From a virus, in the IMG/VR virus record IMGVR_UViG_3300029479_000005: a stretch of 58,493 bases of DNA; one strand, given 5' to 3'. A model generated the notes under the pieces. It saw nothing but the letters and a program-made list of their open reading frames with translations. It had not been told where the DNA came from and searched no databases. The position numbers and the translations under genes were made by a program. This document shows, piece by piece, positions 17,501 to 58,493 of the stretch (position 1 is the stretch's first letter; every line of letters starts with the position of its first letter).

Positions 17501-20500
17501 ATATTCTGCAAACGTATGGTGTTGGTTCACTTAGCATTGATTTAGGACACATAGAGGCCTCGAAAGAAGCATTTAACGATATAAAAGATTTTGTCGTTAA
17601 TATTCCGGATATAGATGACAATACTGATAATATTACAAATCTCAAGAAAAAGATGCAGATTATAGACAGTATTCTGCAAACGTATGGCGTAAGTTCACGA
17701 AGTATTGATTTGGGAAATGTACAAGCCTCGAAAGAAGCATTTAACGATATAAAAGATTTTGTCGTTAATATTCCTAATATAGACGATGATACTGATAATA
17801 TAAATAACTTTAAACAGCGAATGACTGCTATTTCGAGTATTCTTAAAACGTATGGTGGAAGCATTAAAGATATTGATTTAGGAAATGTACAGGCATCACA
17901 AAACGCATTTGACAACATAAAGAGTTTCGTAACCAATATACCTTCTTTGGATGATAATGCGACTAATATTGAAACGTTTGAAAAACAAGCCAATACAATA
18001 TCGAAAATATTATCCTCGTATAGTATAAATACAAAAGACATCGAAGTAAGTACAGTATATACAGCAAAACAAGCATTCGATTCGATAAAAGAGATGTTAA
18101 GTAACATGTCCAGTGTTACCGATTATTCTGCGAATATCGAGTCGTTTAAAGAGCAAATCGACAAAATTATTCGAATGTTAAAAGATTTTAACGAAGATAT
18201 AGTTAATGTCGATTTCAATAACATACAATCAGCGACGACCACATGCGAATCACTAGCAGGATTAGCCAGCAGTGTTTCAGACAACGATGGGAATTTGGAG
18301 GCGTTCGGTAATTCATTAATAGCATTCGGTGAGAAGTTATCTGAATTTTCTAACACAATCGGCGAGGTGGATTTGTCAGGTATCAGTGCCAATATAAATG
18401 ACCTTACCACATCTATACAAAATTCAGCAACACAAATCGGTGACGGGTTTGTTAATTCATTAAATACCGCTGGTTCGCAAATAGTTCAAGCGGCGACTGA
18501 TATGATAAACTCTGCTATATCAGCTATAACCGGTGCTACTTCTAATTTCCAAACAGAAGGAACAAACCTCGGTGATGCTATAGCTTCTGGATTAACAGCC
18601 GCCTCGGGAAATGTAACAGCAGCTGCTCAAAGTGTAGCTTCGGAAAGCGTATCAAGCGTAAGCCAGTATGATGGGCAATATAGAGCTGCCGGCTATAATA
18701 TGGCTGCAGGACTTGCATCTGGAATTAGTGCAGGAAACTCTCTTGCTGTAGATGCTGCTGTAAATATGGCTAAAAGTGCATTGGCCGCAGCAAAAGAAGA
18801 ACTTGGTATACATTCGCCATCAAGAGCTTTTATGGCAATCGGTAGATATATTGGCGAAGGCTTAGCAAACGGTATACGAGATAACGCATATAGAGCAGTT
18901 GATGAAACTGAAGCGTCAGCAGCAAAAGTTAAGAGTGTGGCGAAAAAGTCTTTTGATGATGTCGAAAAATGGGTAGAAGAAGCAAAGTCTTTCGACGAGT
19001 TGAGTTTGGCGGAGGAACTTGAAATATGGGATACTATGATTTCAAAATACTCTGAGGGTAGCGAAGAGAGACTGAAGGCTGAAAAAAATGCTTATGCAGT
19101 TCTTAAGGAATTAAGAGAAGAAGATTATCAGAATTCTAAGGATTGGATCGATAAAGAAAAAGATTACAATCGTATGAGTACCAAAGAGGAACTCGAGGCT
19201 TGGAAACGAGTTCAAGAGCGATACATTGAGGGTACAGACGAACGAGCAGAAATCGATAAAAAGATTTACGATCTGAAACACGAACTTATTGACGGAGATG
19301 TATATGCACTGGAAAGAGAAATTCAGGCTAATGATGACTTAATAGCATCATTGGAAGAAGAAACAGTTGCTTATTCTAATGCTGTAAAAGAAGGTATATA
19401 TCTTCGTAAGTTGTTAAAAGATGCGGAATATAGTACATCTAAGAATTGGATTGAAACCGAAAAAGATTATAATCGTTTAGATACTAAAGGTGAACTTGAA
19501 GCTTGGGAACGAGTTCAGGCAAGATATGAAGACGGTAGTGAAGAACGAATAGAAATCGATAAAAAGATTTACGATCTAAAGCACGAACTTATTGACGGTA
19601 ATATAGATGCGTTGGAAGACGAGATAGAAGCTAACAAACGTCTGATTGCAACTTTAGAAGAGGGTTCGGTTGCATGGTCAAACGCCGTTAAAGAGGGTGA
19701 ATACCTTAATAAACTACTGGTTGATGCTAATTATCAGAATTCTATGGACTGGATTCAAGACCAAGAGGATCGTGGGGAATATTCTTTAGCCGACAAATTA
19801 GCGTGGAATACTCGTATGCTGAATAAATACGGTAAGCGAGATAAGGAAACACGTAAAAAGTACGAAAAAGAAATCTATGCCACGCAAAAAGAAATCTACA
19901 ACGCTTATAAAGACTTTCTTGATGATTGTCAAAATGTTAAGGATGATTACGTCGAGAAAGAAAAGGAATTAAACGAAAAACTCGAACAGGACATTAAAGA
20001 ACTGGAAGATAATTATTCGGATACCCTCGATTCAAGGATTCAGTCACTTTATAATGCATATGGTTTGTTTGATAAGGTGGAGCAAAAAGGAAAAACCAGT
20101 GTTTCTGAATTGACAAAAAATCTTCAAGATCAAGTTGCAGAGTTTGAGGATTGGGACGATACACTTCAACAACTATCTAAACGAGGACTAAACCAAGCTT
20201 TGATAGAAGAACTTCAGGAAATGGGACCATCAGCTATTGCTAATATTCGAGGCTTGAATTCTATGACTGATGCCCAACTTTCGCAATATGCAAATTTGTG
20301 GGCTGAAAAGCATAAAGAAGCAACAGACAGAGCAACTGATGAATTAACCGACTTACGCAAAGAAACAAATAGCCAGATTAAAGAACTTAAAACCACATAT
20401 AATTCAGATTTGGACGAATTGAAGAAAGACACTGACGAAAAACTCAGTGAATTAAAAGATGCTTTCTTAAAGAATATCGGCGCTATCAAAGACGATACCG

Positions 20501-21234
20501 AAGAGAAATTCCAAGAAATTGTTTCTATAGCCAGCACGGTTTTAGGTTCTGCCGGTTGGGATGAACTCGGCGAATATATGGTTGATGGATTAATTGAGGG
20601 TGTAGAAAGCAAACAACCTGAATTTCTTAAAACTTTGGAGAGTCTTATTTCTGCCGGAACGGAAATAACTCAAGATACTGCCGAGATACACTCACCATCG
20701 AGAGTATTTGCCAGAATTGGCGAATATATGGTTGAAGGTTTGATAGGCGGTATTACTAATCGAAGTGATGATGCTTCTAAAGCGAGTGCGGATATGGCAC
20801 GCGGTACAATTCAGTCTGTAAGCAGATTGATAAGTGATATGTCTACAATAATCGATAGCGATATGGAGATAACACCAACCATAAGTCCTATTTTGGATAT
20901 GACAAATGTGCAGAATGGGCTTAATCAAATGGATAGCACACTTTCGGCAAACAGAAGTATTGCTCTAGGAATGAGTGTTGTGTCTAAAAATCAAAATGGA
21001 TTAGCATATCAGTTTGGTGATGCTATATCAAAGTTGGCAGATGCGAATACACAATCGAACGGTCAGATTGTAGACGCAATAGACGGTTTGAAAAGCGATT
21101 TATCTGACTTGGTAGATAGAGTAAGTCAATTACAAGTCGTGATGGATACAGGCGAATTGGTCGGCGCAATAAGTCCTGAAATGGACAGAAGTCTTGGTGT
21201 AGCAGCAATGATGAAAAGGAGAGGTAATATATGA
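11509..21234 (+). CDS. tail tape measure protein, 3241 aa
   Basis: An N-terminal tape-measure core (AYGLDAAAKVASQL...TKGKIDFATFAAAMDD). A long multi-TM segment of about 600 aa. Coiled-coil repeats. Two copies of the C-terminal motif IHSPSR(A/V)F..IG.Y..EGL..GI. Confidence 0.9.
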   Translation: MSTEIDSRIVEMRFDNKHFEENVATSMSTLDRLKEKLKMKDAATGLENISSAAKKVDLSGLDSAIDSVKIKFSSMQVIAATALSNLTTSAINAGKKMTSALVDPLIEGGKKRALNIEQAKFQLEGLGVAWNTIKDDINYGVKNTAYGLDAAAKVASQLVASNVQVGDSMRTALRAVSGVAAMTNSEYEDIGRVFTTVAGNGRLMGDQLQQLSSRGINAAATLANYLGKTEGEIRDMTSKGKIDFATFAAAMDDAFGEHAKEANATFTGSMSNMRAALSRIGADIATPAFQDLRDIFNTLTPIIDKVHTALGPLISDIEKGMRLATDFVINKLNGFSDSFLTSNWDRLKAKISDTGVAFDDFQNGLIETAKSHNIAIDDMIQKEGSFENTLKSGWLTPDLIAETLKNFTNGISETTSEVVNFEEVVNRVINGDFGNGVERINRLTEAGYDYATVQGLVNDVLKGNAVNFEKVVDVQQKFTDGVSEATGEVVNLKDVVDQVINGDFGNGIVRVNKLTEAGYDYATVQGLVNDVLWGNAVNFEKMSDAQLESLGYTEEQIQLLHQLGEEAERTGTPLNELILNLNRPTGISLLIDSIRNAVQGITKIINTVKAAWNDVFASNNTNLLYLMVNAIHSFSEKLIMSDENADNLRRTLRGLFSALDIIKNIVTGGLKTAFDIINAILAGFDLNILAVTAKIGDAITNFRAWYKEHNLLATALKKLTSIIKNAIQFVKEFVSKFKEIPQIQSIIEKVKDIAVKALEKIGEMSEKGQEKILSFIDKLKSLNSISLKDIKIAFKGFKDNIFEYFLNFDNLSKNVKNIFGTLKAKISSSLEATGSSFDGLKAKINSFVHFIQTKFSKVGIGEVLTVGFGVSLIASIRLVSKALDKIMGPFNAVSKVAGKVNGVLSKTQDVLKSYSEKIKSESLKNVAISIAILAGSLVVLAQVDPAKVWSAVGALIVLSGALVGITALTSKIGKVEKFSVNILAISAAILMLVFALKDLNKLDPIRTVQSLAVVLTMILGLIAAISLLSNTAPQTKSSALTILAIAVSIGILANALEKIDKQNPSGKSILVLISIMGALAGLIAITNLVAKDTVKAGVSMVGIAAALLILCTAFNKIDQLKITTKTIGNLIVMVGALTALMAATRLAGKNATKAGVGMIGVASSIFIMIEVLKRIDSVKITSKKVETLIGIMATLSLLMVATRLAGKNATKAGASMLLIAISIGLLAGVIAVLSLVDPSGLDRGLKAVSVLGLVVAGIIASTKLASTCKESLITLTVAIGILVAGLGVLAMIEPESLKNATVAISTVLAMFAVVLAASNLISESYKSIIVMTVAITALGAMLYLLSAIDSGSMLASAQSLSLLMLSLSASMLIISKAGKVSLSAIGSLALIGLVVAELATILAVMNGLNVAPSMETAKALSLLLGTMTGVLVVLSLVGAGATAAFTGIGVLAALIAAVGGIMIGLGALMEYVPKCQEWLDTGMVILEKIGNGIGSFFGGIVNGFNTSASSDLSKVGINLSAFMNSIQPFFDGLSKIDESTLTKLKPLTNFMKDFKSFDTNENSMTEIESQLITFGEALKGFGASISGINIDEINVASNAAKAIAEVNKILSKYKTTNISDFGAQLEPFGRSLKAYGESVDGLNVEAIELSAEAASALSELASALPNSGGWAGMFAGNNDIDDFGAKLIPFGRALKNYGDAVDGVNSESIEESVKAGQALSDLANALPNSGGWAAAFAGDNDIADFGAKLIPFGKAITEYGNSVSGIDVDSITKSTTAISALSELASALPNSGGFAAAFAGDNSIDAFGSKLISFGESLKTYNEQVSDMDTSGIERVNDFINSFNALSQSMSNGNLKAFSDSSITDNLKTQFKAFGDVIKSFNDSIKGMDTKGLEASANAGKSIAEISKITSEGKLGRIFSDGNGEGFKADLKAYGEAIKDYGKAVKGMNTENIAASATAANSIFKVAKTMSGDGTINRIFTDDATAEQFKNDMRVITDILQTYGVGSLSIDLGHIEASKEAFNDIKDFVVNIPDIDDNTDNITNLKKKMQIIDSILQTYGVSSRSIDLGNVQASKEAFNDIKDFVVNIPNIDDDTDNINNFKQRMTAISSILKTYGGSIKDIDLGNVQASQNAFDNIKSFVTNIPSLDDNATNIETFEKQANTISKILSSYSINTKDIEVSTVYTAKQAFDSIKEMLSNMSSVTDYSANIESFKEQIDKIIRMLKDFNEDIVNVDFNNIQSATTTCESLAGLASSVSDNDGNLEAFGNSLIAFGEKLSEFSNTIGEVDLSGISANINDLTTSIQNSATQIGDGFVNSLNTAGSQIVQAATDMINSAISAITGATSNFQTEGTNLGDAIASGLTAASGNVTAAAQSVASESVSSVSQYDGQYRAAGYNMAAGLASGISAGNSLAVDAAVNMAKSALAAAKEELGIHSPSRAFMAIGRYIGEGLANGIRDNAYRAVDETEASAAKVKSVAKKSFDDVEKWVEEAKSFDELSLAEELEIWDTMISKYSEGSEERLKAEKNAYAVLKELREEDYQNSKDWIDKEKDYNRMSTKEELEAWKRVQERYIEGTDERAEIDKKIYDLKHELIDGDVYALEREIQANDDLIASLEEETVAYSNAVKEGIYLRKLLKDAEYSTSKNWIETEKDYNRLDTKGELEAWERVQARYEDGSEERIEIDKKIYDLKHELIDGNIDALEDEIEANKRLIATLEEGSVAWSNAVKEGEYLNKLLVDANYQNSMDWIQDQEDRGEYSLADKLAWNTRMLNKYGKRDKETRKKYEKEIYATQKEIYNAYKDFLDDCQNVKDDYVEKEKELNEKLEQDIKELEDNYSDTLDSRIQSLYNAYGLFDKVEQKGKTSVSELTKNLQDQVAEFEDWDDTLQQLSKRGLNQALIEELQEMGPSAIANIRGLNSMTDAQLSQYANLWAEKHKEATDRATDELTDLRKETNSQIKELKTTYNSDLDELKKDTDEKLSELKDAFLKNIGAIKDDTEEKFQEIVSIASTVLGSAGWDELGEYMVDGLIEGVESKQPEFLKTLESLISAGTEITQDTAEIHSPSRVFARIGEYMVEGLIGGITNRSDDASKASADMARGTIQSVSRLISDMSTIIDSDMEITPTISPILDMTNVQNGLNQMDSTLSANRSIALGMSVVSKNQNGLAYQFGDAISKLADANTQSNGQIVDAIDGLKSDLSDLVDRVSQLQVVMDTGELVGAISPEMDRSLGVAAMMKRRGNI
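12742..13164 (+). repeat. in-frame tandem repeat inside the tape measure, 2 copies of about 70 aa (…VINGDFGNG(V/I)(E/V)R(I/V)N(R/K)LTEAGYDYATVQGLVNDVL…GNAVNFEK)
   Basis: Near-identical peptide and nucleotide copies, seen directly. Confidence 0.8.
14869..15230 (+). repeat. in-frame tandem repeat inside the tape-measure TM region, 2 copies of about 59 aa (KIT(T/S)K…ATRLAGKNATKAG…)
   Basis: The 45-nt stretch ACCAGATTAGCAGGAAAAAATGCGACAAAAGCAGG recurs at about 14938 and about 15115. Confidence 0.75.
16200..17010 (+). repeat. in-frame tandem repeats inside the tape measure: 3 strong plus 2 degenerate copies of about 60 aa (ALPNSGG(W/F)A..FAG(N/D)N(D/S)I(D/A)(D/A)FG(A/S)KLI(P/S)FG)
   Basis: Seen directly. 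Confidence 0.8.
17467..18230 (+). repeat. in-frame tandem repeats inside the tape measure: about 4.5 copies of about 56 aa (…ILQTYG…IDLGNVQASKEAFNDIKDFVVNIP.IDD.TDNI…)
   Basis: Seen directly; the first two copies are nearly identical. Confidence 0.8.
18958..19900 (+). repeat. in-frame tandem repeats inside the tape measure: 2 strong plus 2 degenerate copies of about 101 aa (DWI(D/E).EKDYNR..TK.ELEAW.RVQ.RY..G..ER.EIDKKIYDLKHELIDG…)
   Basis: Seen directly. Confidence 0.8.
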
Positions 21235-32642: not shown

Positions 32643-33875
32643 TCAGTTAATCTTTTCTATTTCTGTTTTTAACCAGGATGCTTCTCTTTTTGTATAGACT
32701 TTTTCTGTCAAATCATTGATTTTGTGTCCAACAATATATTTTATAGCAAATTGGTCTACGTTATATTTTTTTGCTGTTGTAACAAAATATACTCTACCGT
32801 CATGTGGTTTGTGTTCGGGGTTTAAATTTAAACATTCTATAATTTTTTTGAAACGGCTTCTATATTTGTCATATGTAAGGTTGACACTATTTTTTGATTC
32901 AGGGCAGTTAAAAAGATATTTACTATGCAGTCTAACTGCTTCGTCATATCTAAATTTAACAAGCTCTTTTATTTTTGAATGTATCGGAACAATTCTTTCT
33001 GTTCCGGCTTCGGTTTTCATTCCACCAATAAAAGTATTGTTTTTAAAGTCTATATTTTTTAGTTCAATTAAACCAAGTTCTTGCGGTCGCCATCCAGAAT
33101 AGCATTGTATTAACAAAATATCGACATATGGAACTTTATAAAGATTATCCCACAATATTGATATTTCTTCGTCCGAAAATGTTATATGACTGTCGGAGTT
33201 TTCTTCACATTCTTTTAAAACATCGGATGAAGTATTAAAAGTTCGAGCATAATTTCTATCTACTATTTCGTATTCTAATGCATAGTCTAGCATCAGGTTA
33301 AATAGCGATTTTATTCGGGATTGCATATTCGCAGAAGGCAGTCGTTTTTCACCTTTTATTATAGCTACACCATCGTCCATACATCCTTTGATGTGTCGAG
33401 CCCTAATATCCTTGGCTCTCATATTGTATATCGATGAACAATAAGACCATGCGGAAGTGATCGTACGAATACTCGATGCTGATTTTAATGTTTTAAAGTA
33501 TTCACTTGTCCATTTTTCGTATAGTTCTGAGACTGTGATAGCTACATCAAGGTCGTATGGATTATTATTATATTCTATTAATGCTTCGTATGCAGCATTA
33601 TAAGTAGGAAAATATGATTGCGGTTTGAGTGGTTTGCAAATACTTCTTCCTGTTTCTGTTTTACCAACAGTAATCATTGCACGAAATGGATTACGTAACT
33701 TTCTATTCTTAATTTCACTTATTTGACCAAAACCGTTTGGCAATCTTCTTCTTTTATTATTTTTTCCTTTCATTTTTTTTGGTAATTTCTCTGGCTTTAA
33801 AGGAAAGCCACAATGAGGGCAATATATTGCTTTGTCGCTAACATTTAAAGCACATTCGGGACATGGCATTAACAT
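32643..33875 (-). CDS. int: tyrosine integrase (phage integrase family) with an N-terminal zinc ribbon
   Basis: C-terminal catalytic region with …HDGRVYFVT…VGHK…VYTK (R…HxxR…Y). N-terminal CPECALNVSDKAIYCPHCG. Confidence 0.85.
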   Translation of the reverse strand: MLMPCPECALNVSDKAIYCPHCGFPLKPEKLPKKMKGKNNKRRRLPNGFGQISEIKNRKLRNPFRAMITVGKTETGRSICKPLKPQSYFPTYNAAYEALIEYNNNPYDLDVAITVSELYEKWTSEYFKTLKSASSIRTITSAWSYCSSIYNMRAKDIRARHIKGCMDDGVAIIKGEKRLPSANMQSRIKSLFNLMLDYALEYEIVDRNYARTFNTSSDVLKECEENSDSHITFSDEEISILWDNLYKVPYVDILLIQCYSGWRPQELGLIELKNIDFKNNTFIGGMKTEAGTERIVPIHSKIKELVKFRYDEAVRLHSKYLFNCPESKNSVNLTYDKYRSRFKKIIECLNLNPEHKPHDGRVYFVTTAKKYNVDQFAIKYIVGHKINDLTEKVYTKREASWLKTEIEKIN

Positions 33876-34316: not shown

Positions 34317-34390
34317 TATGAAGAGAAAGACATTAGCTCAGTTGGTAGAGCGGCAGATATATCTATCTGAGGGTCGCAAGTTCGATTCTT
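34317..34390 (+). tRNA. tRNA-like element: canonical D-arm (GCTCAGTTGGTAGAGC) and T-arm (GCAAG-TTCGATT-CTTGC), but an imperfect acceptor stem and a non-canonical anticodon loop. Either a phage-encoded tRNA, or the 3' tRNA-derived part of attP.
   Basis: Folded by eye. The acceptor stem has 2 mismatches. The anticodon stem CAGAT/ATCTG closes a 6-nt loop ATATCT. Confidence 0.4.
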
Positions 34391-34545
34391 GCATGCCATT
34401 CTCTTTTTTATAAAACCAACATCGTAATTTATATTTAGGAAAGGAGTTTTTTTGATTACAGAAAAAAGTGGATATTTCCACTCGATGTGTTTTTACAAGA
34501 AGTCATTTTTAAGCTAGAATAGCAGTTGAAAGGAGACGAACGCAG

Positions 34546-38216: not shown

Positions 38217-38236
38217 GATGGGAGGAGGTGAATAGA

Positions 38237-38995
38237 ATGAATAAATTATTAAGTAAAACAGGATGTTTCTTTAAGAAAAACGTAGCTACCATTCTTACTG
38301 GTATAGGTACGGCAGGTGTAGTTATTACTGCTGTTAGTGCAATTAAAGCGACACCTAAAGCTTTATATTCTATAGAAGAAGCAGAAAAAGAAAAAGGTGA
38401 TAAATTATCGAATAAAGAAAAAATCATAACTACGACTCATATATATCTACCTACTATAATTATAGGTGTTTCAACTATAGCTTGTATATTAGGTGCAAAT
38501 GTTTTAAACAAAAAGCAACAAGCATCTCTCATAAGTGCATATGCTTTGCTACAAAAATCGTATAATGAATATCGCGATAAAGTTGATGAGTTGTATGAGA
38601 ATAGCAGTATTGTAGATAAAGAGATAGCAAAAGATGTTTATGATAATACAAAACCATCGGTATCGTCTGATGAAAAATGTTTATTTTATGATATGTTTTC
38701 AAAAAGATATTTCGAATCAAATAAAGTAGATGTAATAGCGGCAGAGTATCATTTTAACAGGAATTTCACATTGCGTGGGTATGCTACGTTAAATGAACTA
38801 TATGAGTTTTTAGGCGTTGATAAAATCGATGGTGGAGATTCCATAGGTTGGAGTATAGATGCCGGTTTGGCATTTTATGGCTATAGCTGGGTTGATTTCG
38901 AACACGATTTTGTAACGACCGATGACGGTATGGAAGTATGTTTGATTTCCATGCCATTTGCGCCAACATCCGACTATCTCGATAGTTGGTTGTGA
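38237..38995 (+). CDS. 2-TM membrane protein, paralogue A of a three-member family (252 aa)
   Basis: Shares the N-terminal TM (…ILTGIGTAGVVITAVSAIKATPKA), a second TM, and the C-terminal motifs (YD.FSKRYFES; LNELYEFLG…GW.ID) with 39555..40316 and 42000..42941. Confidence 0.6.
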   Translation: MNKLLSKTGCFFKKNVATILTGIGTAGVVITAVSAIKATPKALYSIEEAEKEKGDKLSNKEKIITTTHIYLPTIIIGVSTIACILGANVLNKKQQASLISAYALLQKSYNEYRDKVDELYENSSIVDKEIAKDVYDNTKPSVSSDEKCLFYDMFSKRYFESNKVDVIAAEYHFNRNFTLRGYATLNELYEFLGVDKIDGGDSIGWSIDAGLAFYGYSWVDFEHDFVTTDDGMEVCLISMPFAPTSDYLDSWL

Positions 38996-39554: not shown

Positions 39555-40316
39555 ATGTCTAAAAATTTGTCAATGATAACGAAAAATATAGGCAGAAAAT
39601 TAAAAAAGCACAGCCCTGAAATATTAACAGGTATAGGAATTGCAGGTATGATTTCGGCTACGGTGATGGCTGTGAGAGCAACTCCCAAAGCTTTACAAAA
39701 TATTGAACATGAAAAAAAAGAGCAGAATGTAACTAAGTTACCACTTATTGAAATGGCAAAATGTACTTGGAAATCTTATATTCCATCAGCGGTAACTATA
39801 ATTGTTTCTTCGGTATGCTTAGTTGGTGCTTCTACTGTTAGCTTTAAAAGAAACACTGCTTTAGCAACTGCTTATGCTATGACAGAGGCTACATTAAAAA
39901 GCTACCAAGAAAAAGTAGTGGAAACTATAGGTGAAAAGAAAGCAGACGCAATAAAAACGAAAGTTGTAAAAGAAAAGATGGATAGCAATCCGATAAATAA
40001 TAAAGAGGTGATAATTACAACCAAAGGAGATACACTTTGTTATGATTCAGTGAGTGGTCGATATTTTAAATCAGATATAGACACTATTAAAAAAATAGTA
40101 AATGAACTAAACAGGCGAATGCTTAGCGAGTCGTATATATCTTTGAATGATTTCTATTATGAACTCGGGTTGAGTTTTACTAAAATGGGTGACCAATTAG
40201 GTTGGAATATAGATAGAGGTCTAATAGATATATCATATGTGCCACTATTGGCGGACGATGGAAATCCGTGTTTAGCTATGGAGTACACAGTTTCACCGGA
40301 GTACGATTATTGTTAA
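39555..40316 (+). CDS. 2-TM membrane protein, paralogue B (253 aa)
   Basis: Motifs KKHSPEILTGIGIAGMISATVMAVRATPKA and …LNDFYYELG…LGWNIDRG. Confidence 0.6.
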   Translation: MSKNLSMITKNIGRKLKKHSPEILTGIGIAGMISATVMAVRATPKALQNIEHEKKEQNVTKLPLIEMAKCTWKSYIPSAVTIIVSSVCLVGASTVSFKRNTALATAYAMTEATLKSYQEKVVETIGEKKADAIKTKVVKEKMDSNPINNKEVIITTKGDTLCYDSVSGRYFKSDIDTIKKIVNELNRRMLSESYISLNDFYYELGLSFTKMGDQLGWNIDRGLIDISYVPLLADDGNPCLAMEYTVSPEYDYC

Positions 40317-41999: not shown

Positions 42000-42941
42000 A
42001 TGAATGCGAAAATTACAATAAATAGAATAGGATTACAAATAAAAAAACACAGCCCTGAAATCATGATGGTTGCAGGTGTTGTAGGAACTGTTGTGGGCGC
42101 TGTTATGGCTTGTAAAGCAACTACTAAAATCGATGATATATTGAACGAGACAAAAAACAACGTTGACAAGATACACGCTGCTGAAGAAAAAGGCCAAATA
42201 ACTACCGATAAAGATGGTGAACTTATAATTGAGGAGTATACAGCGGACGATTGTAAAAAAGACTTAAGTATAACATACGCCAAAACAGGTCTGGAATTAG
42301 CTAAGATTTATGCGCCGGCAGTCGTGTTAGGAGCAATAAGCATCGCGTCCATATTAGCTGCTCATAATGTACTTCGTAAGCGTAACGTTGCTTTGATGGC
42401 TGCATACACGGCTATCGATAATAATTTTAAAGATTATCGCAAACGTGTTATCACCAGATTTGGTGAGAAAATCGATAAAGAGCTAAAGTGCGGAGTGAGA
42501 ACGGAAAACGTTACCGAAACAATTGTAGATGAAAATGGTGAAGAAAAAACTGTTGAAAAAACAGTTACAATAGTTGATGATGTAACAACATCAGAGTATA
42601 GACGTGTTTTCGATGCCGGTAATGCGGGTTGGGAAAAAGATGCAGACCATAATCTTTTCTTCTTAAGATCAGTTCAAAATTGGGCAAATGAGGTTTTAAA
42701 AGATAGAGGGCATATTTTTTTAAACGAGTTGTACGATCAACTCGGATATGAAAGAACAAAAGCGGGACAAATCGTCGGATGGGTTTATAGACCGGACGAT
42801 GTTGAGTATAAAGGTGATGGCTATGTTGATTTTGGAATTTATGATTATACACAGCAGGTAAATCGCAATTTCTTGGACGGAGACGACCCAACAGTTATAT
42901 TAACATTTAATGTGGACGGACCAATATATGATCTGATATAG
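42000..42941 (+). CDS. 2-TM membrane protein, paralogue C (313 aa)
   Basis: Motifs KKHSPEIMMVAGVVGTVVGAVMACKATTK and …LNELYDQLG…IVGW. Confidence 0.6.
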   Translation: MNAKITINRIGLQIKKHSPEIMMVAGVVGTVVGAVMACKATTKIDDILNETKNNVDKIHAAEEKGQITTDKDGELIIEEYTADDCKKDLSITYAKTGLELAKIYAPAVVLGAISIASILAAHNVLRKRNVALMAAYTAIDNNFKDYRKRVITRFGEKIDKELKCGVRTENVTETIVDENGEEKTVEKTVTIVDDVTTSEYRRVFDAGNAGWEKDADHNLFFLRSVQNWANEVLKDRGHIFLNELYDQLGYERTKAGQIVGWVYRPDDVEYKGDGYVDFGIYDYTQQVNRNFLDGDDPTVILTFNVDGPIYDLI

Positions 42942-45090: not shown

Positions 45091-45258
45091 ATGGACAAAA
45101 CAATTATCGAACTACATATGACGGTAGATCGTTTAAAAAATATTGAAGAATGCTTGAACAAACAAATCGCATTTCGAAGAAAAGTAACAGTGGCAGTTTT
45201 GCTTGCAGGAACTTATGTAATTTATAAAAAGATAAGGAGTAAACAGAATAATGATTGA
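45091..45258 (+). CDS. small protein with a C-terminal TM (55 aa); overlaps the polymerase start
   Basis: Translated by hand; GGAGGTGA ribosome-binding site 6 nt upstream. Confidence 0.35.
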   Translation: MDKTIIELHMTVDRLKNIEECLNKQIAFRRKVTVAVLLAGTYVIYKKIRSKQNND

Positions 45259-48200
45259 CTTTATGATTGTTGCTACGAAGTGCAGCAAAAAAGGCGTGAT
45301 TGAAATATATCCAAAGTTCATCATTAAAAAGAGTTCCGATCTTATGATTCGAGGAGGCGATTTCTATGCTATTTGGATTGAAGAACGGGGACTATGGTCC
45401 ACGGACGAGCAAGATGCATTACAATTAATAGATAAGGAGCTAGATACATTTGCTAAAGAAAACAAAGACCGTTTTGAAGGAACTGTAAAGATATTGCATA
45501 TGTGGGACGCCGAGTCCGGTATGATAGACTCATGGCACAAGTATTGTCAAAAACAAATGAGAGACAATTTTCACATGCTTGACGAAAAACTTATATTTTC
45601 AAACAGTCCCACAAATAAAAAAGATTATGCAAGCAAACGACTTAATTATCCTCTGGAAAAAGGGGATATTTCAGCGTATGATAAATTAATGTCTACTTTA
45701 TATTCGGAAGAAGAACGCCATAAGATCGAATGGGCTATTGGTTCAATTGTGGCGGGAGATTCTAAACATATTCAAAAATTTATGGTTCTATATGGTGCGG
45801 CGGGTACGGGTAAATCAACAGTTTTAAATATTATACAACAATTATTTCAGGGTTACTATTCGGTATTTGATGCAAAAGCATTGGGATCGAGTAGTAACTC
45901 TTTTGCGTTAGAGGCATTTAAAACGAACCCCCTAGTTGCTATTCAACATGACGGTGATTTATCTAGAATTGAGGATAATACCAGATTAAACAGTTTGGTG
46001 TCGCATGAGCTCATGACCGTAAACGAAAAATTTAAATCAACATATTCAAATCAGTTCAAATGTTTCTTATTTATGGGTACGAATAAACCAGTTAAAATCA
46101 CAGATGCAAAGTCGGGGTTGATTCGAAGATTGATCGATGTTTCTCCATCTGGAAATAAATTGAATTCGAAAGAGTACAAAACAATAGTGAAACAAGTTGG
46201 GTTTGAATTAGGAGCTATTGCTGACTATTGTTTGAATTTATATTTAGACAATACAGGATATTATGACGATTACGTACCTATAAGTATGATGAGTGCATCT
46301 AATGACTTTTATAATTATATAATGGATTCATATTATGTATTCGCTAAAGAAAACGGCACAACATTGAAAGCGGCTTGGGAAATGTACAAGCAGTATTGTG
46401 ATGAGGCAAAAGTACCTTATCCGTTATCACAAAGAGCTTTTAAGGAAGAGCTAAAGAATTACTTTAAGGATTATAAAGAACGTCATACGTTAAGTGATGG
46501 CGTTCGTGTCAGGTCATATTATAGTGGTTTCAAAACTGAAAAAATCGATAATTTAACTGTTATTGATGCCGAGAAAAAAAATGACAGCTATTTAATTGTA
46601 TTTGATAAACAGGAATCTATATTTGATAAAGAATGTGCCGGTTGCGTTGCGCAATACGCAACCAGTAATGAAACTCCATATGAAAGTTGGGATAATGTCA
46701 CAACAAAATTGGAAGAACTCGATACATCGAAACTTCATTACGTTAAACTCCCAGTAAATCATATAGTTATAGATTTCGATATTAAAGACGAATACGGTAA
46801 AAAATCATTTGAGAAGAATCTAGAGGCGGCTAGTAAATGGCCGGCTACTTATGCCGAATTAAGTAAAAGCGGAGCAGGTATTCATCTTCATTATATTTAC
46901 ACAGGAGATCCAACACGCCTGAGTAGAATATATGACGAAGATATAGAAATTAAAGTTTTTATAGGAAAAAGTTCATTAAGACGTAAACTGTCTAGGTGTA
47001 ATGATTTACCTATTGCAACAATTAGCTCTGGATTACCATTGAAAGGAGAAAACAAAATGATAAATATAGAAGCTGTTAAAAGCGAAAAGGGACTTAGAAC
47101 ATTAATAAAGCGTAATCTTAATAAAGAAATCCATCCAGCAACAAAACCGAGTATTGATTTTATACATAAAATATTGGACGATGCTTATAATAGTGGTTTG
47201 AAATATGACGTTACCGATATGAGAAATGCTATACTAGCGTTTGCTGCTAATAGTACAAATCAATCGGATTACTGTATAAAGCTTGTAAGTAAAATGAATT
47301 TTAAATCAGAGGAACCATCTGTCGGAAAAAATAATGACGATGCAAAGCTTATTTTCTACGATGTAGAAGTCTTCCCTAATTTATTCTTAGTCAATTGGAA
47401 ATTTGAGGGTAAGGGTAAGCCTGTTGTACGGATGATTAATCCGTCACCGGCTGAGGTAGAAGAACTTATGAGATTCAGACTGGTTGGGTTTAACTGCCGA
47501 AGATATGATAACCATATACTCTACGCACGGCTAATGGGTTATACAAATGAACAGTTGTATAATTTATCACAGAAAATAATTAATGGCAGTCCCAATTGTT
47601 TCTTTGGAGAGGCATACAATGTATCATATACAGATGTTTATGATTTTTCAAGTAAAAAACAATCATTAAAGAAGTTTGAAATTGAATTGGGTATTCACCA
47701 TCAGGAACTCGGATTGCCTTGGGATCAACCGGTACCTAAAGAATTATGGGCAAAAGTTGCAGAATACTGTGATAACGATGTTATTGCAACGGAAGCTGTA
47801 TTTAATGCCAGAAAAGCAGATTTTATTGCCAGAGAGATATTAGCTGATGTGGCGGGCATGACTGTGAACGATACAACAAATTCTCTTACAACCAGAATTA
47901 TATTTGGTAAGAACAGAAAGCCGCAGGATCAATTTAATTATCGTGATATGGGACTCCCATCGAGTGATGATATTCTAATGGACGGTTTTGATGATTATAC
48001 CAGATTTGATAATCAGAATAGACCTATATTTCCAGGTTATGAATTTAAATTCGGAAAATCCATGTATAGAGGTGAAGAAATCGGTGAGGGAGGATATGTG
48101 TATTCCGAACCAGGTATGTATAGTAACATTGCGCTATTGGATATTGCTTCTATGCATCCGAGTAGCATTATAGCTGAACAGTTATTTGGCTGCGAATATA

Positions 48201-49234
48201 CAAAACGGTTTCAGGAAATAAGAGATGCTCGTGTTGCAATTAAGCACAATGATTTTGAGACTGCCAAAACAATGCTGGATGGAAAGTTAGCAAAGTATCT
48301 TACAGACGAGGGAGCTGCAGCAGATTTGGCACAAGCTTTGAAAATCGCTATTAATTCAGTTTACGGTTTAACAGCAGCAAAATTTGATAATCCATTTAAA
48401 GATAATCGAAATGTCGATAATATTGTCGCAAAACGTGGCGCTTTATTCATGGTTAACCTAAAACATGAAGTACAAGCAAGAGGATTCACAGTTGCTCATA
48501 TAAAAACCGATTCAATAAAAATTCCAAATGCAACGTCTGAAATTATTCAGTTTGTATCGGATTATGGTAAAATGTATGGTTATATATTTGAGCATGAGGC
48601 TACATACGACAGAATGTGTCTTGTAAATGATGCTGTTTATATCGCAAAGTATAAAGACGGAAAGCATGCCGGAGAATGGACTGCCACGGGAACACAGTTT
48701 CAAGTACCATATGTATTCAAAACGCTGTTTAGTAAAGAAGACATTGCTTTTGAGGATATGTGCGTAACAAATAGTGTGACTTCTAGTTTATATTTGGATA
48801 TGAATGAGAAATTGCCTCAATTAACAATTGAAGAGGAAAAAGAATTAGCAAAATTACATAAGGCTTTGGATTCTGAAGATTCTGAGAATATGGAAAAAGT
48901 GCTTAAGTCGTATAGGTATGATGCTGAATATGCCAGCGAAAGATATTCTGAACTTCGTAAAAAAGAGGAAGAATCGCATAACTATGTATTTATCGGAAAA
49001 GTCGGGCAATTTTGCCCTATAAAACAGGGATGTAATGGCGGACTTTTAATGAGAGAAAAAGACGGCAAATATTATGCCGCAGGAGGTAGTAAGGGATACA
49101 GATGGCTTGAAGCCGAGATGGTAAAGGAACTCGGAAAAGAAGCGGATATCGATCGCTCTTATTATGAAAATATGGTCAACGATGCCATTTGTGATATTTC
49201 ACAATATGGTGATTTTGAATGGTTTGTAAATTAA
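45251..49234 (+). CDS. fused SF3 helicase - archaeo-eukaryotic (AEP) primase - family-B DNA polymerase with a 3'-5' exonuclease (1327 aa)
   Basis: SF3 helicase: Walker [10 protein letters not shown] and motif C FMGTN. AEP primase: IDFDIKD and [11 protein letters not shown]. Exonuclease: ExoI FYDVEVF, ExoII FNCRRYD, Exo[11 protein letters not shown]. Polymerase B: motif [10 protein letters not shown], motif [10 protein letters not shown], motif C IKTDSI. Confidence 0.8.
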
Positions 49235-52086: not shown

Positions 52087-52764
52087 ATGAATATGGTAAA
52101 TTGGGCAGAAAATGAAGTGAAAATTGCTTGCGAAAAAGAGCATCCTGGTCTTAAAGAGGGAGAATTTGATTACGGTTGTGCATGCTATCAGAGTGCATTA
52201 AAGGCTTATAAAAGTTTAGCCGAAGATGGTCATAGTGGATATAGTTGGGGTGTAACTGCATCTATTCTAAAAAGATTGATGGACAATAAGCCATTAACTT
52301 CTATTGAGGATACGGATGATACTTGGTCTCGTGTTACATGTGGAAAAGATGATCGCACTGAGTATCAATGCAAAAGAAAAGCATCGTTGTTTAAGACTAT
52401 TTATGACGACGGTAGAATCGAATACCGTGATCGTGATCAATTTATTTGCGTTGATATTCATGATGGAAGTACATACATATTAGGTCTTATTAACAATGTT
52501 ATGCGAGAAAAATTTCCTATAACTTTCCCCTATATGCCTGGAAATGCTATCGAGGTATACTGCGAGGATTTTTTGACAGATCCTAAGAATGGTGCTTTTG
52601 ATACTGTCGGGATTATATATTGCAAGACTGATGATGGTAAAGAGGACATAAAAAGATATTTTAAAAAATCTTCTAACGATAGTGGTTGGGAAGAAATTAA
52701 TTTTGACGAGTATATGAAGAGAAAGGTAATGGCTGATAAGCTAAAGGAGAGCAAAGATGATTAA
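52087..52764 (+). CDS. hypothetical protein (225 aa)
   Basis: ORF only. Confidence 0.45.
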   Translation: MNMVNWAENEVKIACEKEHPGLKEGEFDYGCACYQSALKAYKSLAEDGHSGYSWGVTASILKRLMDNKPLTSIEDTDDTWSRVTCGKDDRTEYQCKRKASLFKTIYDDGRIEYRDRDQFICVDIHDGSTYILGLINNVMREKFPITFPYMPGNAIEVYCEDFLTDPKNGAFDTVGIIYCKTDDGKEDIKRYFKKSSNDSGWEEINFDEYMKRKVMADKLKESKDD

Positions 52765-54836: not shown

Positions 54837-54839
54837 AAT

Positions 54840-55225
54840 TGCATCAGGAGAGAATGTGGTCATTTATATTTTTTAAAAGTGGGTTTAAGGTCACTTTTCT
54901 AGAAAAAGATATTTTTAGAATGATATTTTTATCTTTTTCAGAGATGAAATTGGTCATAAAAATGGTCAAATGCCCACTTTTAGCCCACTTTTTGAATATT
55001 AATGACCTGCTAAAAATGGCTTACCTATGCGGTTTTGACGGGTCTGCGGTCAAATGCCCACTTTTATTTCTATTTAATTGCGAATAAAAAAATATATAAA
55101 TATATATAACATATACAACGAAAACGGGTTTTTGACCATCTGATATATATATATATATATATCAGAACTCATTGATTTAACCGAATGAATGTGATACAAT
55201 AAAACGGATTAATATATTAAAAGAT
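54840..55225. other. putative origin of replication: GGTCA(T/A/C)(T/A)T iteron-like repeats, two 19-bp direct repeats, an AT-rich block and a 26-bp (AT)n palindrome
   Basis: GGTCA copies at about 54858, 54889, 54952, 54964 and 55048, and inverted at 55003 and 55133. GGTCAAATGCCCACTTTTA at 54964-54982 and 55048-55066. CTGATATATATATATATATATATCAG at 55140-55165. Confidence 0.45.
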
Positions 55226-55238
55226 GGAGGGATTGATC

Positions 55239-55589
55239 ATGACAAAACACGATAAAGAATATGAAAAACTTTATGAGCATTTACAACGTTCAGGATTCGA
55301 ATTCGGTTATAGCACCCGTATAGGTAAATCTAAAATTATATTTGAAGAAAGCATTAAAAACATTCCATCTTCAAAGAGAAATCACGATAACATTCCTTTA
55401 TTTGTGAAATGCAACAAATGTGATGAATATATGGATTTTCAACAAGGCAAAACAGATGTGCTCGATGGTAGATGGATATGTCCAGTGTGCGGAAACAATG
55501 TTCGAGAACGTACAGTATATAATCAAATTGAAAGAGAAAATTTCAATGATAACTATGAGTATGAAGAAATATATAACGAAAAGTTATAA
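55239..55589 (+). CDS. zinc-ribbon protein (116 aa; CNKC…CPVCG)
   Basis: GATGGAGGG ribosome-binding site. Confidence 0.5.
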   Translation: MTKHDKEYEKLYEHLQRSGFEFGYSTRIGKSKIIFEESIKNIPSSKRNHDNIPLFVKCNKCDEYMDFQQGKTDVLDGRWICPVCGNNVRERTVYNQIERENFNDNYEYEEIYNEKL

Positions 55590-55626
55590 TGACTTTTGTT
55601 AAATGATAATTTATATTTTTTATTGA

Positions 55627-55660
55627 GAGCTTGTGTTAACTACGCAGGCTCTTTCTTTTC
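55627..55660 (+). terminator. rho-independent terminator (AGAGCTTG…CAGGCTCT followed by a T-run)
   Basis: Hairpin read directly. Confidence 0.5.
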
Positions 55661-55661
55661 G

Positions 55662-55692
55662 TACGCGAAAAAAACATGCCCTTTTATGGAGA
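55662..55692 (+). promoter_or_regulatory. promoter-like motif family member (TACGCGAAAAAAACATGCCCTTTTATGGAGAG)
   Basis: Copy 11 of 11. Confidence 0.3.
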
Positions 55693-55763
55693 GAAGGAGA
55701 TATACGTAAAAAAATACGCATCATTTTCTTTTTATATTTTTTGCAGAAAGGAGAATTTAAATA

Positions 55764-56054
55764 ATGTTAGAGAGAAATTTCCAAGCTAAATTAAAAAAAG
55801 AGCTTAAAGAAATGTTCCCAGGTTGTATAGTTACAAAAAACGATGCTAACGACATTCAAGGATTACCCGATTTAACAATATTTTATAAAGATAAATGGGC
55901 GACTCTGGAATGCAAAAAATCAGCGAACGAAAGGAAACGACCAAATCAAGAATATTACGTGGACAGAATGAATGAGATGTCATTCTCAAGATTTATTTGT
56001 CCAGAGAATAAGGAGGAAGTATTGAATGAACTTCAACAAGCATTCAAATCTTGA
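55764..56054 (+). CDS. VRR-NUC domain nuclease (PD-(D/E)XK fold)
   Basis: GLPDLTIFYKDKWATLECK carries the PD…E.K signature; 96 aa. Confidence 0.6.
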   Translation: MLERNFQAKLKKELKEMFPGCIVTKNDANDIQGLPDLTIFYKDKWATLECKKSANERKRPNQEYYVDRMNEMSFSRFICPENKEEVLNELQQAFKS

Positions 56055-56583
56055 AGGTAGGCATGCTTTCTTAGGTGCTAGTAAATATCATTGGATTAGA
56101 TATTCTGATGATAAAATAGCAGAATCGTATTCTAAATTTCTCGCTATTCAAAGAGGAACTGAGTTACATGAATTTGCGGCACAATGTATAAGATTATCGC
56201 AAAAACTTCCGAGATCTAAGAAAACCTTGAATTCTTATGTAAATGATGCTATAGGTTTCAGAATGATACCTGAACAAATTTTATATTATTCAGATAATTG
56301 TTTTGGTACAGCTGATGCTATTATATTTAAAAACAACTTTTTAAGAATACACGATTTGAAGACCGGAGTGATTCCGGCACATATGGAGCAGTTACGAATA
56401 TATGCTGCTCTTTTTTGTTTGGAATATGGAATTAAACCGGGTGAAATTGGTATGGAACTTCGAATTTATCAAAACGACGAAATTATATACGATGTTCCTA
56501 CCGCCGAAGATATTGCACCTATAATGGATCGAATAGTTGTTTCCGATAAGATTATAACGAAAATGAAAGAACGAGAGGAGTAA
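56026..56583 (+). CDS. PD-(D/E)XK-family nuclease (YqaJ/Cas4-like exonuclease fold)
   Basis: Carries D…E.K (TADAIIF…IHDLKTG) and an N-terminal GASKYH. Confidence 0.45.
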   Translation: MNFNKHSNLEGRHAFLGASKYHWIRYSDDKIAESYSKFLAIQRGTELHEFAAQCIRLSQKLPRSKKTLNSYVNDAIGFRMIPEQILYYSDNCFGTADAIIFKNNFLRIHDLKTGVIPAHMEQLRIYAALFCLEYGIKPGEIGMELRIYQNDEIIYDVPTAEDIAPIMDRIVVSDKIITKMKEREE

Positions 56584-56586
56584 GTC

Positions 56587-58493
56587 ATGAGTATTATAGA
56601 CGAAATAAAATCATATTTTGGTTGTGGTTCCAGTGGTAAGGCTTTAGCCCATTATGGTACACCACGACACTCAGGACGTTACCCGTGGGGGAGTGGAGAA
56701 AATCCGTTTCAACATAGCGGAGATTTTCTATCTAGAATAGATGAACTAAAAAAATCTGGTATGACAGAAACGGAAATCGCACATGAATTGGGTTTAAGCA
56801 CTACCCAATATAGAGTGCAAAAACAATTAGCCTCGCATGAGCGACGACAGTTAGAAGTAGATCGTGCTAAATCGTTAAGAGCAGATGGTAAATCTCTTAA
56901 TGAAATAGCAAAGATTATGGGCTATAATAATGATTCGTCCATTCGTTCACTTTTAAACGACAATACTGCTGAAAGAGCAAATCGTGCTCAAAAAGCAGCT
57001 GATGTTTTAAAAAAAGAACTACAGAAAAAAGGAATGATAGACGTAGGTGCTGGTGCAGAGCGAGAGATTGGTATATCGGAAAATACTATGAAAGAAGCTC
57101 TTTATATTTTGGAACGTGAGGGATACAACGTTTATGGTGTAGGAATTCCTCAAGTGACCAATGCCCATCAGCAATCGAACACTAAAGTTTTGTGTAATCC
57201 GGAAATTGAATATAGAGATGTATATCAAAATATGGGTGATGTGCAATCTTTGGGCAATTATCATTCTACTGATGGTGGTGTGACATTCAACGAATTGAAA
57301 AAGCCAACTAGTATAGATTCTAAAAGAATTAGTATATGCTATGGTGATGAGGGCGGTTTGAATAAGGACGGTGTCATTGAAATAAGACGTGGTGTACCCG
57401 ATTTGGATTTAGGAAATTCACACTATGCACAAGTACGTATACTTGTAGACGGTACACATTATTTGAAAGGCATGGCTATGTATTCCGATGATATTCCAGA
57501 TGGAGTAGATATTGTGTTTAATACAAATAAAAAGTCGGGAACCGATAAAATGAATGTGTTAAAACCAATAAAAGATGATCCTGAAAATCCGTTTGGTGCA
57601 TTGATTAAAGCCAATGGTCAAAGTGAATATATAGATCCCAAAGATGGAACTAAAAAACTTTCTGCCATTAACAAACTTAAGGAAGAGGGGGATTGGGATA
57701 CGATGTCAAGAAATCTGTCCCAGCAATTTTTATCGAAGCAACCTTTGAGTTTGATAAAGAAACAGCTGGATTTAACATATGCAGATAGAGAGGCTGAATA
57801 CTCGGAGATAAAATCTCTTACTAATCCGACAGTAAAAAAGAAAATGTTAATGGATTTTGCAAATGATTGTGATGCAGCGGCGGTACATCTACAGGCTGCA
57901 GCATTACCTAGGCAGAATACCCAGGTTATTCTACCTATATCGGCAATGAAAGAAACAGAAGTATATGCTCCTAACTATAAAAACGGCGAACAGGTGGCAT
58001 TAATTCGTTTTCCTCATGGCGGTACATTTGAAATACCGGTATTGACGGTTAATAATAAAAATCCGTCAGCAAAAAGGATATTGGGAAACGTTACAGATGC
58101 CGTAGGAATAAATGCTAAAGTAGCTGAACGACTATCGGGGGCTGATTTCGACGGTGACCAAGTAGTAGTTATTCCTACTAATAATAAGGTTCGTATAAAA
58201 TCAACACCGCCGTTAAAAGATTTGGAGGGATTCGATCCTAAGACTCAGTATGCTTACCATGAGGGGATGAAAGTCATGACTAAAAGTGAAACCCAAAAAC
58301 AAATGGGTATAGTATCCAATCTTATAACTGATATGACACTACGGGGGGCACCTGAGAAAGATATAGCTAAAGCTGTAAAACATAGTATGGTAGTAATCGA
58401 TGCTGAAAAGCACAAATTAGATTATAAACAATCCGAAAAAGACAACGATATAGCCTTGCTAAAGAAAACCTACCAACGCCATCAAAACATGGA
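56587..58493 (+). CDS. N-terminal and central portion of the wrap-around two-barrel RNA polymerase. It runs off the window end and continues at 1..949. It contains two HTH motifs, a beta-like barrel motif, and a beta'-like catalytic motif.
   Basis: The hand translation has no stop through 58493. HTH motifs: MTETEIAHELGLSTTQYRVQKQL and KSLNEIAKIMGYNNDSSIRSLL. Beta-like barrel: GGLNKDGVIEIRRG. Beta'-like: LIRFPHGGTFEIPVLTV…GADFDGDQVVVIPT (compare beta' NADFDGDQMAVHVP). Confidence 0.6.
   Translation, partial: MSIIDEIKSYFGCGSSGKALAHYGTPRHSGRYPWGSGENPFQHSGDFLSRIDELKKSGMTETEIAHELGLSTTQYRVQKQLASHERRQLEVDRAKSLRADGKSLNEIAKIMGYNNDSSIRSLLNDNTAERANRAQKAADVLKKELQKKGMIDVGAGAEREIGISENTMKEALYILEREGYNVYGVGIPQVTNAHQQSNTKVLCNPEIEYRDVYQNMGDVQSLGNYHSTDGGVTFNELKKPTSIDSKRISICYGDEGGLNKDGVIEIRRGVPDLDLGNSHYAQVRILVDGTHYLKGMAMYSDDIPDGVDIVFNTNKKSGTDKMNVLKPIKDDPENPFGALIKANGQSEYIDPKDGTKKLSAINKLKEEGDWDTMSRNLSQQFLSKQPLSLIKKQLDLTYADREAEYSEIKSLTNPTVKKKMLMDFANDCDAAAVHLQAAALPRQNTQVILPISAMKETEVYAPNYKNGEQVALIRFPHGGTFEIPVLTVNNKNPSAKRILGNVTDAVGINAKVAERLSGADFDGDQVVVIPTNNKVRIKSTPPLKDLEGFDPKTQYAYHEGMKVMTKSETQKQMGIVSNLITDMTLRGAPEKDIAKAVKHSMVVIDAEKHKLDYKQSEKDNDIALLKKTYQRHQNM

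Follow-up and report, generated by a model that had tools for sequence, protein, structure and literature searches.

The non-coding gap at 54837-55238 of IMG/VR virus record IMGVR_UViG_3300029479_000005 carries an array of repeated two-part sites around a conserved A+T-rich block, and is probably the replication origin used by the GP55-type replicase that this phage encodes. The record, called the window here over its full 58,493 nucleotides, is a circularly assembled phage genome of about 58.4 kb with 35% G+C. An origin is the most likely reading of the gap on the grounds of anatomy, conservation and analogy, and it is the best available explanation because the array ends the replication module of a phage with a GP55-type replicase. 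The sequence-only reading had also placed a candidate origin here, with a (TA)n palindrome as its unwinding element; the origin is retained in our analysis, whereas the palindrome loses that role. Three features that characterize iteron origins with a DNA-unwinding element are found together: clustered copies of a site, an adjacent and outstandingly A+T-rich region, and linkage to a conserved replication module.

Anatomy of the array

The repeat unit of the array is a two-part site, TGGYCA-N4-CCCACTT, and the GGTCA repeats of the window represent its first half. Together, GGTCA and CCCACTT elements form four copies of the composite site TGGYCAAAWRCCCACTT, plus extra half-sites. GGTCA(T/A)(A/T) had at first been taken as the repeat unit by itself, with at least five direct and two inverted copies. 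These copies are present, directly oriented at 54858, 54889, 54952, 54964 and 55048 and inverted at 55001-55007 and 55131-55137, but the one at 54889 reads GGTCACT, so that GGTCAWW fits four of the five direct copies. Across the whole window GGTCAWW occurs at chance level (25 found versus 25.7 expected). The 402-bp gap holds seven of the 43 window copies of GGTCA, with 0.30 expected (Poisson P 3e-8, uncorrected for region choice), as well as four of the six copies of CCCACTT, with 0.04 expected (P 1e-7, again uncorrected for region choice).

Two copies of the 19-mer GGTCAAATGCCCACTTTTA, already recognized in the sequence-only reading, lie 84 bp apart at 54964-54982 and 55048-55066, and the partial third copy described with them, GCCCACTTTTTG, follows the first as an 11-bp tandem (54983-54994). 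No further match to the 19-mer with up to three mismatches exists in the whole window (0.05 expected). A search of the window with the family consensus returned four matches, compared with 0.64 expected, all of them within the array: 54877-54893 (minus strand), 54963-54979 (plus), 55047-55063 (plus) and 55122-55138 (minus).

From left to right, the gap begins behind the stop codon of a 63-amino acid open reading frame (ORF) at 54836 and opens with an outermost GGTCATT half-site (54858-54864, plus strand). Composite site 1 (54877-54893, minus strand) is an inverted TGACCTTAAACCCACTT that differs from the family consensus at three positions; the inverted CCCACTTTTA at 54874-54883 (minus) forms part of it, and the box variant GGTCACTTTT at 54889-54898 (plus) overlaps it. 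A left A+T-rich spacer (54894-54950), in which GATATTTTTA occurs twice (54905-54931), leads to a TGGTCATA half-site (54951-54958, plus). Composite site 2 (54963-54982, plus) contains the first 19-mer copy, matches the family consensus perfectly and is followed in 11-bp tandem by a second CCCACTTTTT box (54983-54994, plus), the counterpart of a box doublet in relatives. Next come an inverted GGTCATT half-site (55001-55007, minus) and a hairpin-capable spacer (55004-55044) with TATGCGGTTTTGACGGG, a sequence that many relatives keep as TATGCGGGTTTGCGGGC. The element between the upstream and the proximal sites is variable, being another hairpin in locus L045 and a set of 11-bp tandem repeats in L065 and L037.

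The innermost sites, at 55047-55066 (plus) and 55121-55139 (minus), converge on the A+T block. Composite site 3, which contains the second 19-mer copy, forms the left border with its T-run facing the block, and composite site 4, an inverted and degenerate ATGGTCAAAAACCCGTTTT, forms the right border. Between them lies the conserved A+T-rich block (55067-55120), a candidate DNA-unwinding element with a near-invariant ATTGCGAATAAAAAAA at 55077-55092. The 54-mer starting at 55062 has the highest A+T content of the whole window (91%), in agreement with the A+T-rich block reported earlier. As judged from sequence comparison, the conserved A+T-rich element is this 54-bp block between converging composite sites, not the palindrome beside it. 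The latter (55139-55166) is present and perfect as had been described, but it spans 28 bp, TCTGA(TA)9TCAGA, rather than 26 bp, and contains the single (TA)n run of at least five units in the window. It is specific to the window: the closest relatives (L003/L088 and L087) and all other relatives lack it, and L070 alone has a (TA)7 run, located inside its A+T block. The palindrome is probably incidental, an expanded dinucleotide repeat.

Conservation of the array in related and distant phages

Three sets of relatives were retrieved: 80 IMG/VR loci anchored on the exonuclease gene, 80 loci anchored on the replicase gene, and 76 loci taken from bacterial genomes. At least three CCCACTT boxes within 350 bp were found in 60 of 80 IMG/VR loci and in 63 of 76 prophage loci. 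In most relatives, a cluster of three to nine boxes lies upstream of the VRR-Nuc gene, and in the exonuclease-anchored IMG/VR set one cluster per locus holds 85% of all boxes in the fetched DNA. Direct boxes, an A+T block of about 50 bp and an inverted box follow one another in this order at more than 120 related loci, phage and prophage, of gut Clostridia, and a scan for A+T blocks with inverted arms, carried out without bias, recovered the array element in 71 loci. Aligning 36 distinct cores yielded GCCCACTTtCCCACTTTTTT, about 50 bp of A+T-rich DNA with a near-invariant ATTGYGAWAAAAA inside, and then AAAAAGTGGGCwTTTGGCCA. Reverse-complemented, this right arm gives TGGCCAAAWGCCCACTTTTT, in essence the 19-mer; it is this match that defines the repeat unit as the two-part site.

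The design of the array is kept while the intergenic DNA around it diverges. In the closest relatives, identity over the gap is about 77%, as compared to 94-99% for the flanking exonuclease and replicase proteins. The spacing from box to inverted box is fixed at 63-66 bp. Even in GC-richer genomes, and in most other loci, the A+T block is the most A+T-rich 50-mer: it reaches 94% versus 78% for the next best in Faecalibacterium phage FP_oengus (52% mean), 88% versus 72% in L057, and 78% versus 68% in Gordonia phage Petito. Furthermore, the two arms co-vary, with CCCAACTT on both sides in L042/L157, TGGCCA-type arms in L064, L132 and L035, and TGGCCAAAA in FP_oengus, a pattern in keeping with a single protein that recognizes both. 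Between the array and the next conserved feature, the promoter-like motif that precedes VRR-Nuc, lie anywhere from about 120 bp to over 2 kb of DNA, and in Lactococcus phage 1706 the array is located elsewhere, before orf75. Thus, the array appears to be a self-contained cis-element and not part of one promoter.

The same design extends to distant phages. FP_oengus, the nearest described phage, has 48% G+C and shares 61% identity in the replicase; its syntenic gap contains two copies of TTTGGCCAAAAACCCACTT at a distance of 83 bp (84 bp in the window), then the 94% A+T block and an inverted AAAACGGGCTTTTGGCCA. In Arthrobacter phage Dynamite, the core lies just upstream of the VRR-Nuc gene and consists of GTGGCCAAAAGCCCACT, 58 bp of A+T-rich DNA and ACTGGGCAATTGGCCAC; this site is nearly identical to that of the window, and the host belongs to another phylum. 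The layout is retained with other boxes in Petito (AATCTGCCAAA and TTAATACACGGTG), in Streptomyces phage Scap1 (TTGTCAAA-type boxes) and in phage 1706 (CTATCACGAAAAAAC and ACTTCGGGA), whose array (L083, 9375-9785) stands directly upstream of the RNA-polymerase-like orf75. As the design spans two host phyla, the protein that reads the sites is probably phage-encoded. Near-identity of a 17-bp site between Clostridia and Arthrobacter phages is unusual for origin repeats and suggests a strongly constrained protein-DNA interface.

Several other repeat-rich regions were seen in the relatives. L021 features, at 1680-1915, three to four copies of a palindromic AATTTCACGGATGAAAT, a 130-bp A+T stretch and one inverted copy, followed by two XRE-type helix-turn-helix (HTH) genes. 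Either the element has been replaced by this version, or the repeats belong to a separate operator module; because the contig extends no more than 1.7 kb further upstream, a CCCACTT array could be located outside it. The repeat clusters of L163 and L109, considered as arrays, proved to be coding repeats, and that of L163 (18150-18570) is a long run of 21-bp repeats (GNAEISG-type) in a gene downstream of the replicase.

A candidate origin weighed against other explanations

The replicase gene (45251-49234, plus strand) encodes a 1327-amino acid protein that is a full-length ortholog of phage 1706 GP55 and shares 40-42% identity with the proteins of 1706-group phages. It comprises a P4/D5-type SF3 helicase at residues 171-396 (DUF5906, TIGR01613), AEP-type primase motifs near residues 505-555, including VIDFDIKD, and matches to PolB models at residues 946-1090. 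By alignment, the catalytic aspartates are kept, GP55 D509 corresponding to D510 in the primase and D949 to D964 in the polymerase. An AlphaFold model of residues 440-720 (pLDDT 68) retrieved NrS-1 primase-polymerase as its top PDB match, only weakly (E 2e-3). The neighbouring exonuclease and full-length homologs of the replicase are present in about equal numbers of phage records (250 and 252, respectively), and the phages that share the array design all encode a GP55 ortholog. Biochemical work published in 2025 showed that GP55 is a dimer with helicase, RNA primase, PolB and 3'-5' exonuclease activities, and that it primes best at 5'-CCAAC-3', especially CCCAAC, starting with GTP (PMC12205980). 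In that study, GP55 was assayed only on M13 and oligonucleotide templates and no origin was mapped, and more than 1000 homologs were reported, mostly from phages of human-associated bacteria (PMC12205980). The GP55-type replicase is presumed to be the enzyme acting at the array. We also considered that the phage has no primase and that its YonO-like RNA polymerase primes at the array, and rejected this, as the replicase carries AEP motifs and GP55 is a proven primase (PMC12205980).

In the mechanism that we propose, a phage protein, either the replicase itself or a small partner, would bind the repeated sites, and this binding would melt the A+T block. The helicase of the replicase would then load on the exposed strands, and its own AEP primase and PolB would initiate bidirectional synthesis away from the block. 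The upstream boxes would contribute cooperativity in binding or a means of control, and the (TA)9 palindrome would be a bystander. Replicons with SF3 helicases, such as the staphylococcal pathogenicity islands (SaPIs; Rep/ori), P4 (alpha/ori-crr), SV40 and papillomavirus, have repeated, often inverted sites beside an A+T-rich region.

Among known systems, SaPIs resemble the window both in the short repeated sites that flank an A+T-rich region and in the combination of a P4/D5-family SF3 helicase with an element-encoded primase. However, the SaPI ori lies immediately 3' of rep, whereas the array is located 5.6 kb downstream of the replicase gene, and the sites of the window are two-part and nearly unchanged between host phyla, whereas SaPI iterons are island-specific. 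Helicase binding was reportedly shown for SaPI ori and Rep by Ubeda and colleagues in 2007, while the window array is known from sequence. In phage P4, octamers repeated in direct and inverted orientation are separated by kilobases from the gene that encodes its multifunctional primase-helicase, and the helicase domain of the window matches the P4-family model TIGR01613. P4 differs in that it requires two separate elements, ori and crr, and in that alpha, which lacks a polymerase domain, has a C-terminal winged-helix DNA-binding domain for which no equivalent was identified in the window. As in lambda and in iteron plasmids, an initiator-binding repeat array would lie beside an A+T-rich unwinding region (for lambdoid O-iteron complexes, see PMC7466680), and the direct plus inverted copies recall the iterons and operators of plasmid Rep proteins. 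In contrast to lambda, where ori lies within the initiator gene and the host DnaB, DnaG and Pol III are recruited, the window phage has a single protein for helicase, primase and polymerase functions, and a search for DnaA boxes (TTATCCACA, up to one mismatch) from 53113 to the window end found none. Phage 1706 combines the full-length replicase ortholog with an analogous array, differing in its box sequences. Lactococcal phages of the c2, sk1 and P335 groups also carry non-coding, A+T-rich and repeat-rich DNA at the boundary of early and replication genes, with unrelated replication proteins and repeats. In c2, the origin overlaps a promoter, and lactococcal phage origins have been shown by plasmid replication or 'Per' interference assays. 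Origins built from repeats and an A+T block are already well known, and this element would be a further example.

A number of observations weigh against an origin. The array is neither inside nor adjacent to the replicase gene, and windowed identity comparisons of the replicases from the window, FP_oengus, Dynamite, Petito, Scap1 and 1706 revealed no domain that varies with the kind of site; in the remaining proteins of the module, scans against Pfam, PHROG and NCBIfam found no DNA-binding domain. No PLSDB plasmid carries this replicase. Genes led by a ribosome-binding site (RBS) start 20-30 nucleotides past the inverted box in L010, L026, L037 and L049, and the gene following the array encodes an XRE-type regulator in L049 and L021; a gene start at this position is also how a promoter or operator is expected to look. 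Moreover, an origin gives no explanation for the near-invariant motif in the A+T block. The GC-skew analysis that the sequence-only reading had suggested as a check brought no help: skew is positive throughout, with no turning point except at the reverse-strand lysogeny genes, and it is uninformative either way because nearly all genes lie on one strand. A search of the accessible literature returned no description of the array, nor of any origin for GP55-type phages.

A more specific version of the origin, which we consider doubtful, is that the CCCACTT boxes double as preferred priming sites of the replicase, in which case the origin would need no separate initiator. The box cores read CCCAC in the window, CCCAAC in L042/L157 and, on the bottom strand, CCCGAAG in 1706, and the two boxes on either side of the A+T block are on opposite strands, each with its T-run towards the block. 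After melting, a primer from each border box would grow outwards to give two leading strands and a bidirectional start; synthesis would be expected to begin, on the top strand, within the CCCAC of the CCCACTTTT box (55057) and, at the right border, on the bottom strand. Against this stands the array of 1706 itself, which is without CCAAC, and the resemblance of box and priming motif could be a coincidence. Separately, we noted that CCAAC occurs 61 times on the bottom and 22 times on the top strand of the whole window, and CCCAAC 15 versus 3 times, a bias that probably stems mostly from the general excess of G over C on the coding strand, with selection for priming sites as a possible contributor.

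Returning to the array as a whole, the strongest competitor to an origin, although an unlikely one in our estimate, is a promoter with its operators: the A+T block would promote the right-end operon (VRR-Nuc, Cas4 exonuclease and RNA-polymerase-like protein), and the boxes would bind a phage regulator that activates or represses it. The block contains a near-invariant TTGYGA, with TATATA about 17 bp further on, and the positions of the boxes would suit an upstream activator site plus a downstream operator. In several relatives, the RBS-led genes just past the inverted box are sometimes XRE-type regulators, and L021 combines palindromic sites and XRE genes in an analogous layout. Yet under neutral scoring (TTGACA-16/18-TATAAT, with A2 and T6 required in the second hexamer) the 36 cores are no more promoter-like than composition-matched shuffles (8.03 versus 8.44 +/- 0.14), and their best matches fall at inconsistent positions; TTGYGA-17-TATATA as a sigma-A promoter thus received no support and was discarded. 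A promoter scan of the window region gave 10 sites versus 9.0 expected. In addition, TTGYGA is lost in FP_oengus and Dynamite, where the boxes and the A+T-richness persist, and the following gene is not conserved, being absent from L035, L065 and L074. The boxes are confined to one locus, and six to nine sites over 300 bp would be unusual for a promoter. A promoter embedded in the origin would reconcile both readings.

That the gap is a passive hot spot of recombination or insertion (a 'boundary sequence'), or has some other function, seems quite improbable. Variable small genes are inserted right beside the array in different relatives, and intergenic repeats of Arthrobacter cluster AU phages, at another locus, were proposed to promote recombination (10.1101/2020.01.10.891226). 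A passive site, however, would not preserve a constant internal layout and the co-variation of its arms in phages of two host phyla.

We give still less credence to the array as the promoter or loading site of the phage's own YonO-like RNA polymerase, a 918-amino acid protein whose three HTH motifs would read the boxes. This protein carries a GADFDGD motif and a C-terminal HTH resembling sigma region 4, shares 50% identity with Dynamite gp98 along its entire length, including the HTHs, and is encoded by every relative examined (FP_oengus, 1706, Petito, Scap1 and Dynamite); its gene in 1706 comes immediately after the array. Several promoters would be expected for such a polymerase, whereas the boxes occur at one locus only. 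Besides, its HTHs are essentially the same in L042, which has the CCCAACTT boxes, and in CCCACTT-type phages, although this is a weak test.

Two further explanations are highly improbable. Terminase recognition sites also have repeat arrays and A+T-rich DNA, which would suit a cos or pac packaging site, but the contigs of six independent relatives, three of them near-identical, terminate some 3 kb downstream of the exonuclease gene in the motif …CACCCCCTCC..CAT (contigs L010-L012, L026, L036, L043 and L074), and Actinobacteria phage records also end about 3 kb past that gene. The corresponding motif in the window, GCACCCCCTCCCTCAT at 1656-1671, lies upstream of the terminase genes, preceded by a G-run and inside a gene-free gap (1214-1915), and the physical genome end (cos) is likely to be near 1671. 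An attP site is disfavoured by the position of the integrase gene, 21 kb away, and by Dynamite, which bears the array and for which the approximately 14.5 kb of annotation inspected list no integrase. Finally, the 82-amino acid ORF at 54839-55087 is an open frame that could in principle make the repeats coding, but, as the sequence-only reading had argued, it appears to be non-coding: it begins with TTG, lacks a Shine-Dalgarno sequence and any PHROG match, is split in L003 into 33-, 39- and 59-amino acid pieces by single-base indels that leave the DNA boxes intact, and its conservation tracks DNA motifs on both strands, not codons.

Genome context and implications

The first and last 99 nucleotides of the window (1-99 and 58395-58493) are identical, so that the record is a circular assembly opened within a gene, and the genome itself measures about 58.4 kb. 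Nearly all genes lie on the plus strand. Structural, packaging and lysis genes occupy 2-32 kb, followed by the integrase gene (32643-33875, minus strand) and a long early and replication block (34.7-54.8 kb). The relatives are prophages of Lachnospiraceae, Ruminococcus, Blautia, Oscillospiraceae and Christensenellaceae. A near-identity DNA search of phage records matched nothing, and the search for distant matches returned the nuclease genes alone.

Directly after the array, 55239-55589 encodes a 116-amino acid Zn-ribbon protein (CxxC…CxxC). Its start is most likely the ATG at 55239, with the RBS GGAGGG at 55226-55231, rather than 55224, which sets the right boundary of the non-coding gap at 55238. 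Homologs occupy the same place in FP_oengus and L003 and are absent there from most relatives; the sole match of the protein is a weak one to Lar-type restriction-alleviation proteins. Outside the conserved array, a promoter-like TTGATT-17-TACAAT with a TG (55172-55200, plus strand) precedes this gene and is kept in L003 and L002.

Further downstream lie the genes for VRR-Nuc (55764-56054), the Cas4-type exonuclease (56026-56583) and the 918-amino acid RNA-polymerase-like protein (56586-58493 joined to 1-~850, across the window ends). The latter contains the two-barrel motif GADFDGD, a weak Pfam RdRP match, two N-terminal HTHs and one C-terminal HTH, and belongs to the phage-1706-type branch of YonO-like proteins (PMC2919709). 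In all cases its gene is the final large one ahead of the genome end. A role in late transcription is conceivable. Just upstream of VRR-Nuc, phages of both host phyla carry the motif CGCRAAAAAnACAnnnCyTTTTATGRAGAGAG, which reads GGTATAATGAGGGAGAGGG in Dynamite. It is found at 55666-55700 of the window, after a terminator (55625-55653), at 19685-19715 of L001 and 4640-4665 of L085, and in L035, L037, L065 and L074. It may serve as a promoter, perhaps one that the RNA polymerase of the phage itself recognizes. In L033 (~2780-2900), L057 (~1330-1470), L079 (~2400-2530) and L029 (~1870-2010), the array is followed by a promoter-like site and an element of about 110 nucleotides that is absent from the window. 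With its long-range pairing GCCACACAAT…ATTGTGTGGC and conserved ggtaaaaagtgttttctctctttactcat, this element could be a small structured RNA.

Elsewhere in the window, the early region contains three DUF6353 paralogs (38228-38995, 39555-40316 and 42000-42941), of which FP_oengus has at least two, and the replication block includes a Pfam match to the Thoeris anti-defence protein Tad3 (52087-52764, E 6e-31). A single 3241-amino acid ORF in the tail-gene region (11509-21234) is very long for a tape-measure protein. In the lysogeny-switch region, a tRNA gene at 34327-34400 (Rfam RF00005, 39 bits) overlaps a small minus-strand ORF (34338-34481); it is the only match of the window in an Rfam scan at gathering score, which returned none in the array region.

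What sets the array apart is its near-identical site in phages of Clostridia and Arthrobacter and its association with a newly described single-protein replisome. For the question of where a GP55-type replicase starts on a real phage genome, it provides a concrete candidate with defined sites, and it is present in cultivable systems, namely 1706 on Lactococcus, FP_oengus on Faecalibacterium, and the Arthrobacter and Gordonia phages. If confirmed, the element could find use in building replicons or 'origin-interference' tools in gut Clostridia.

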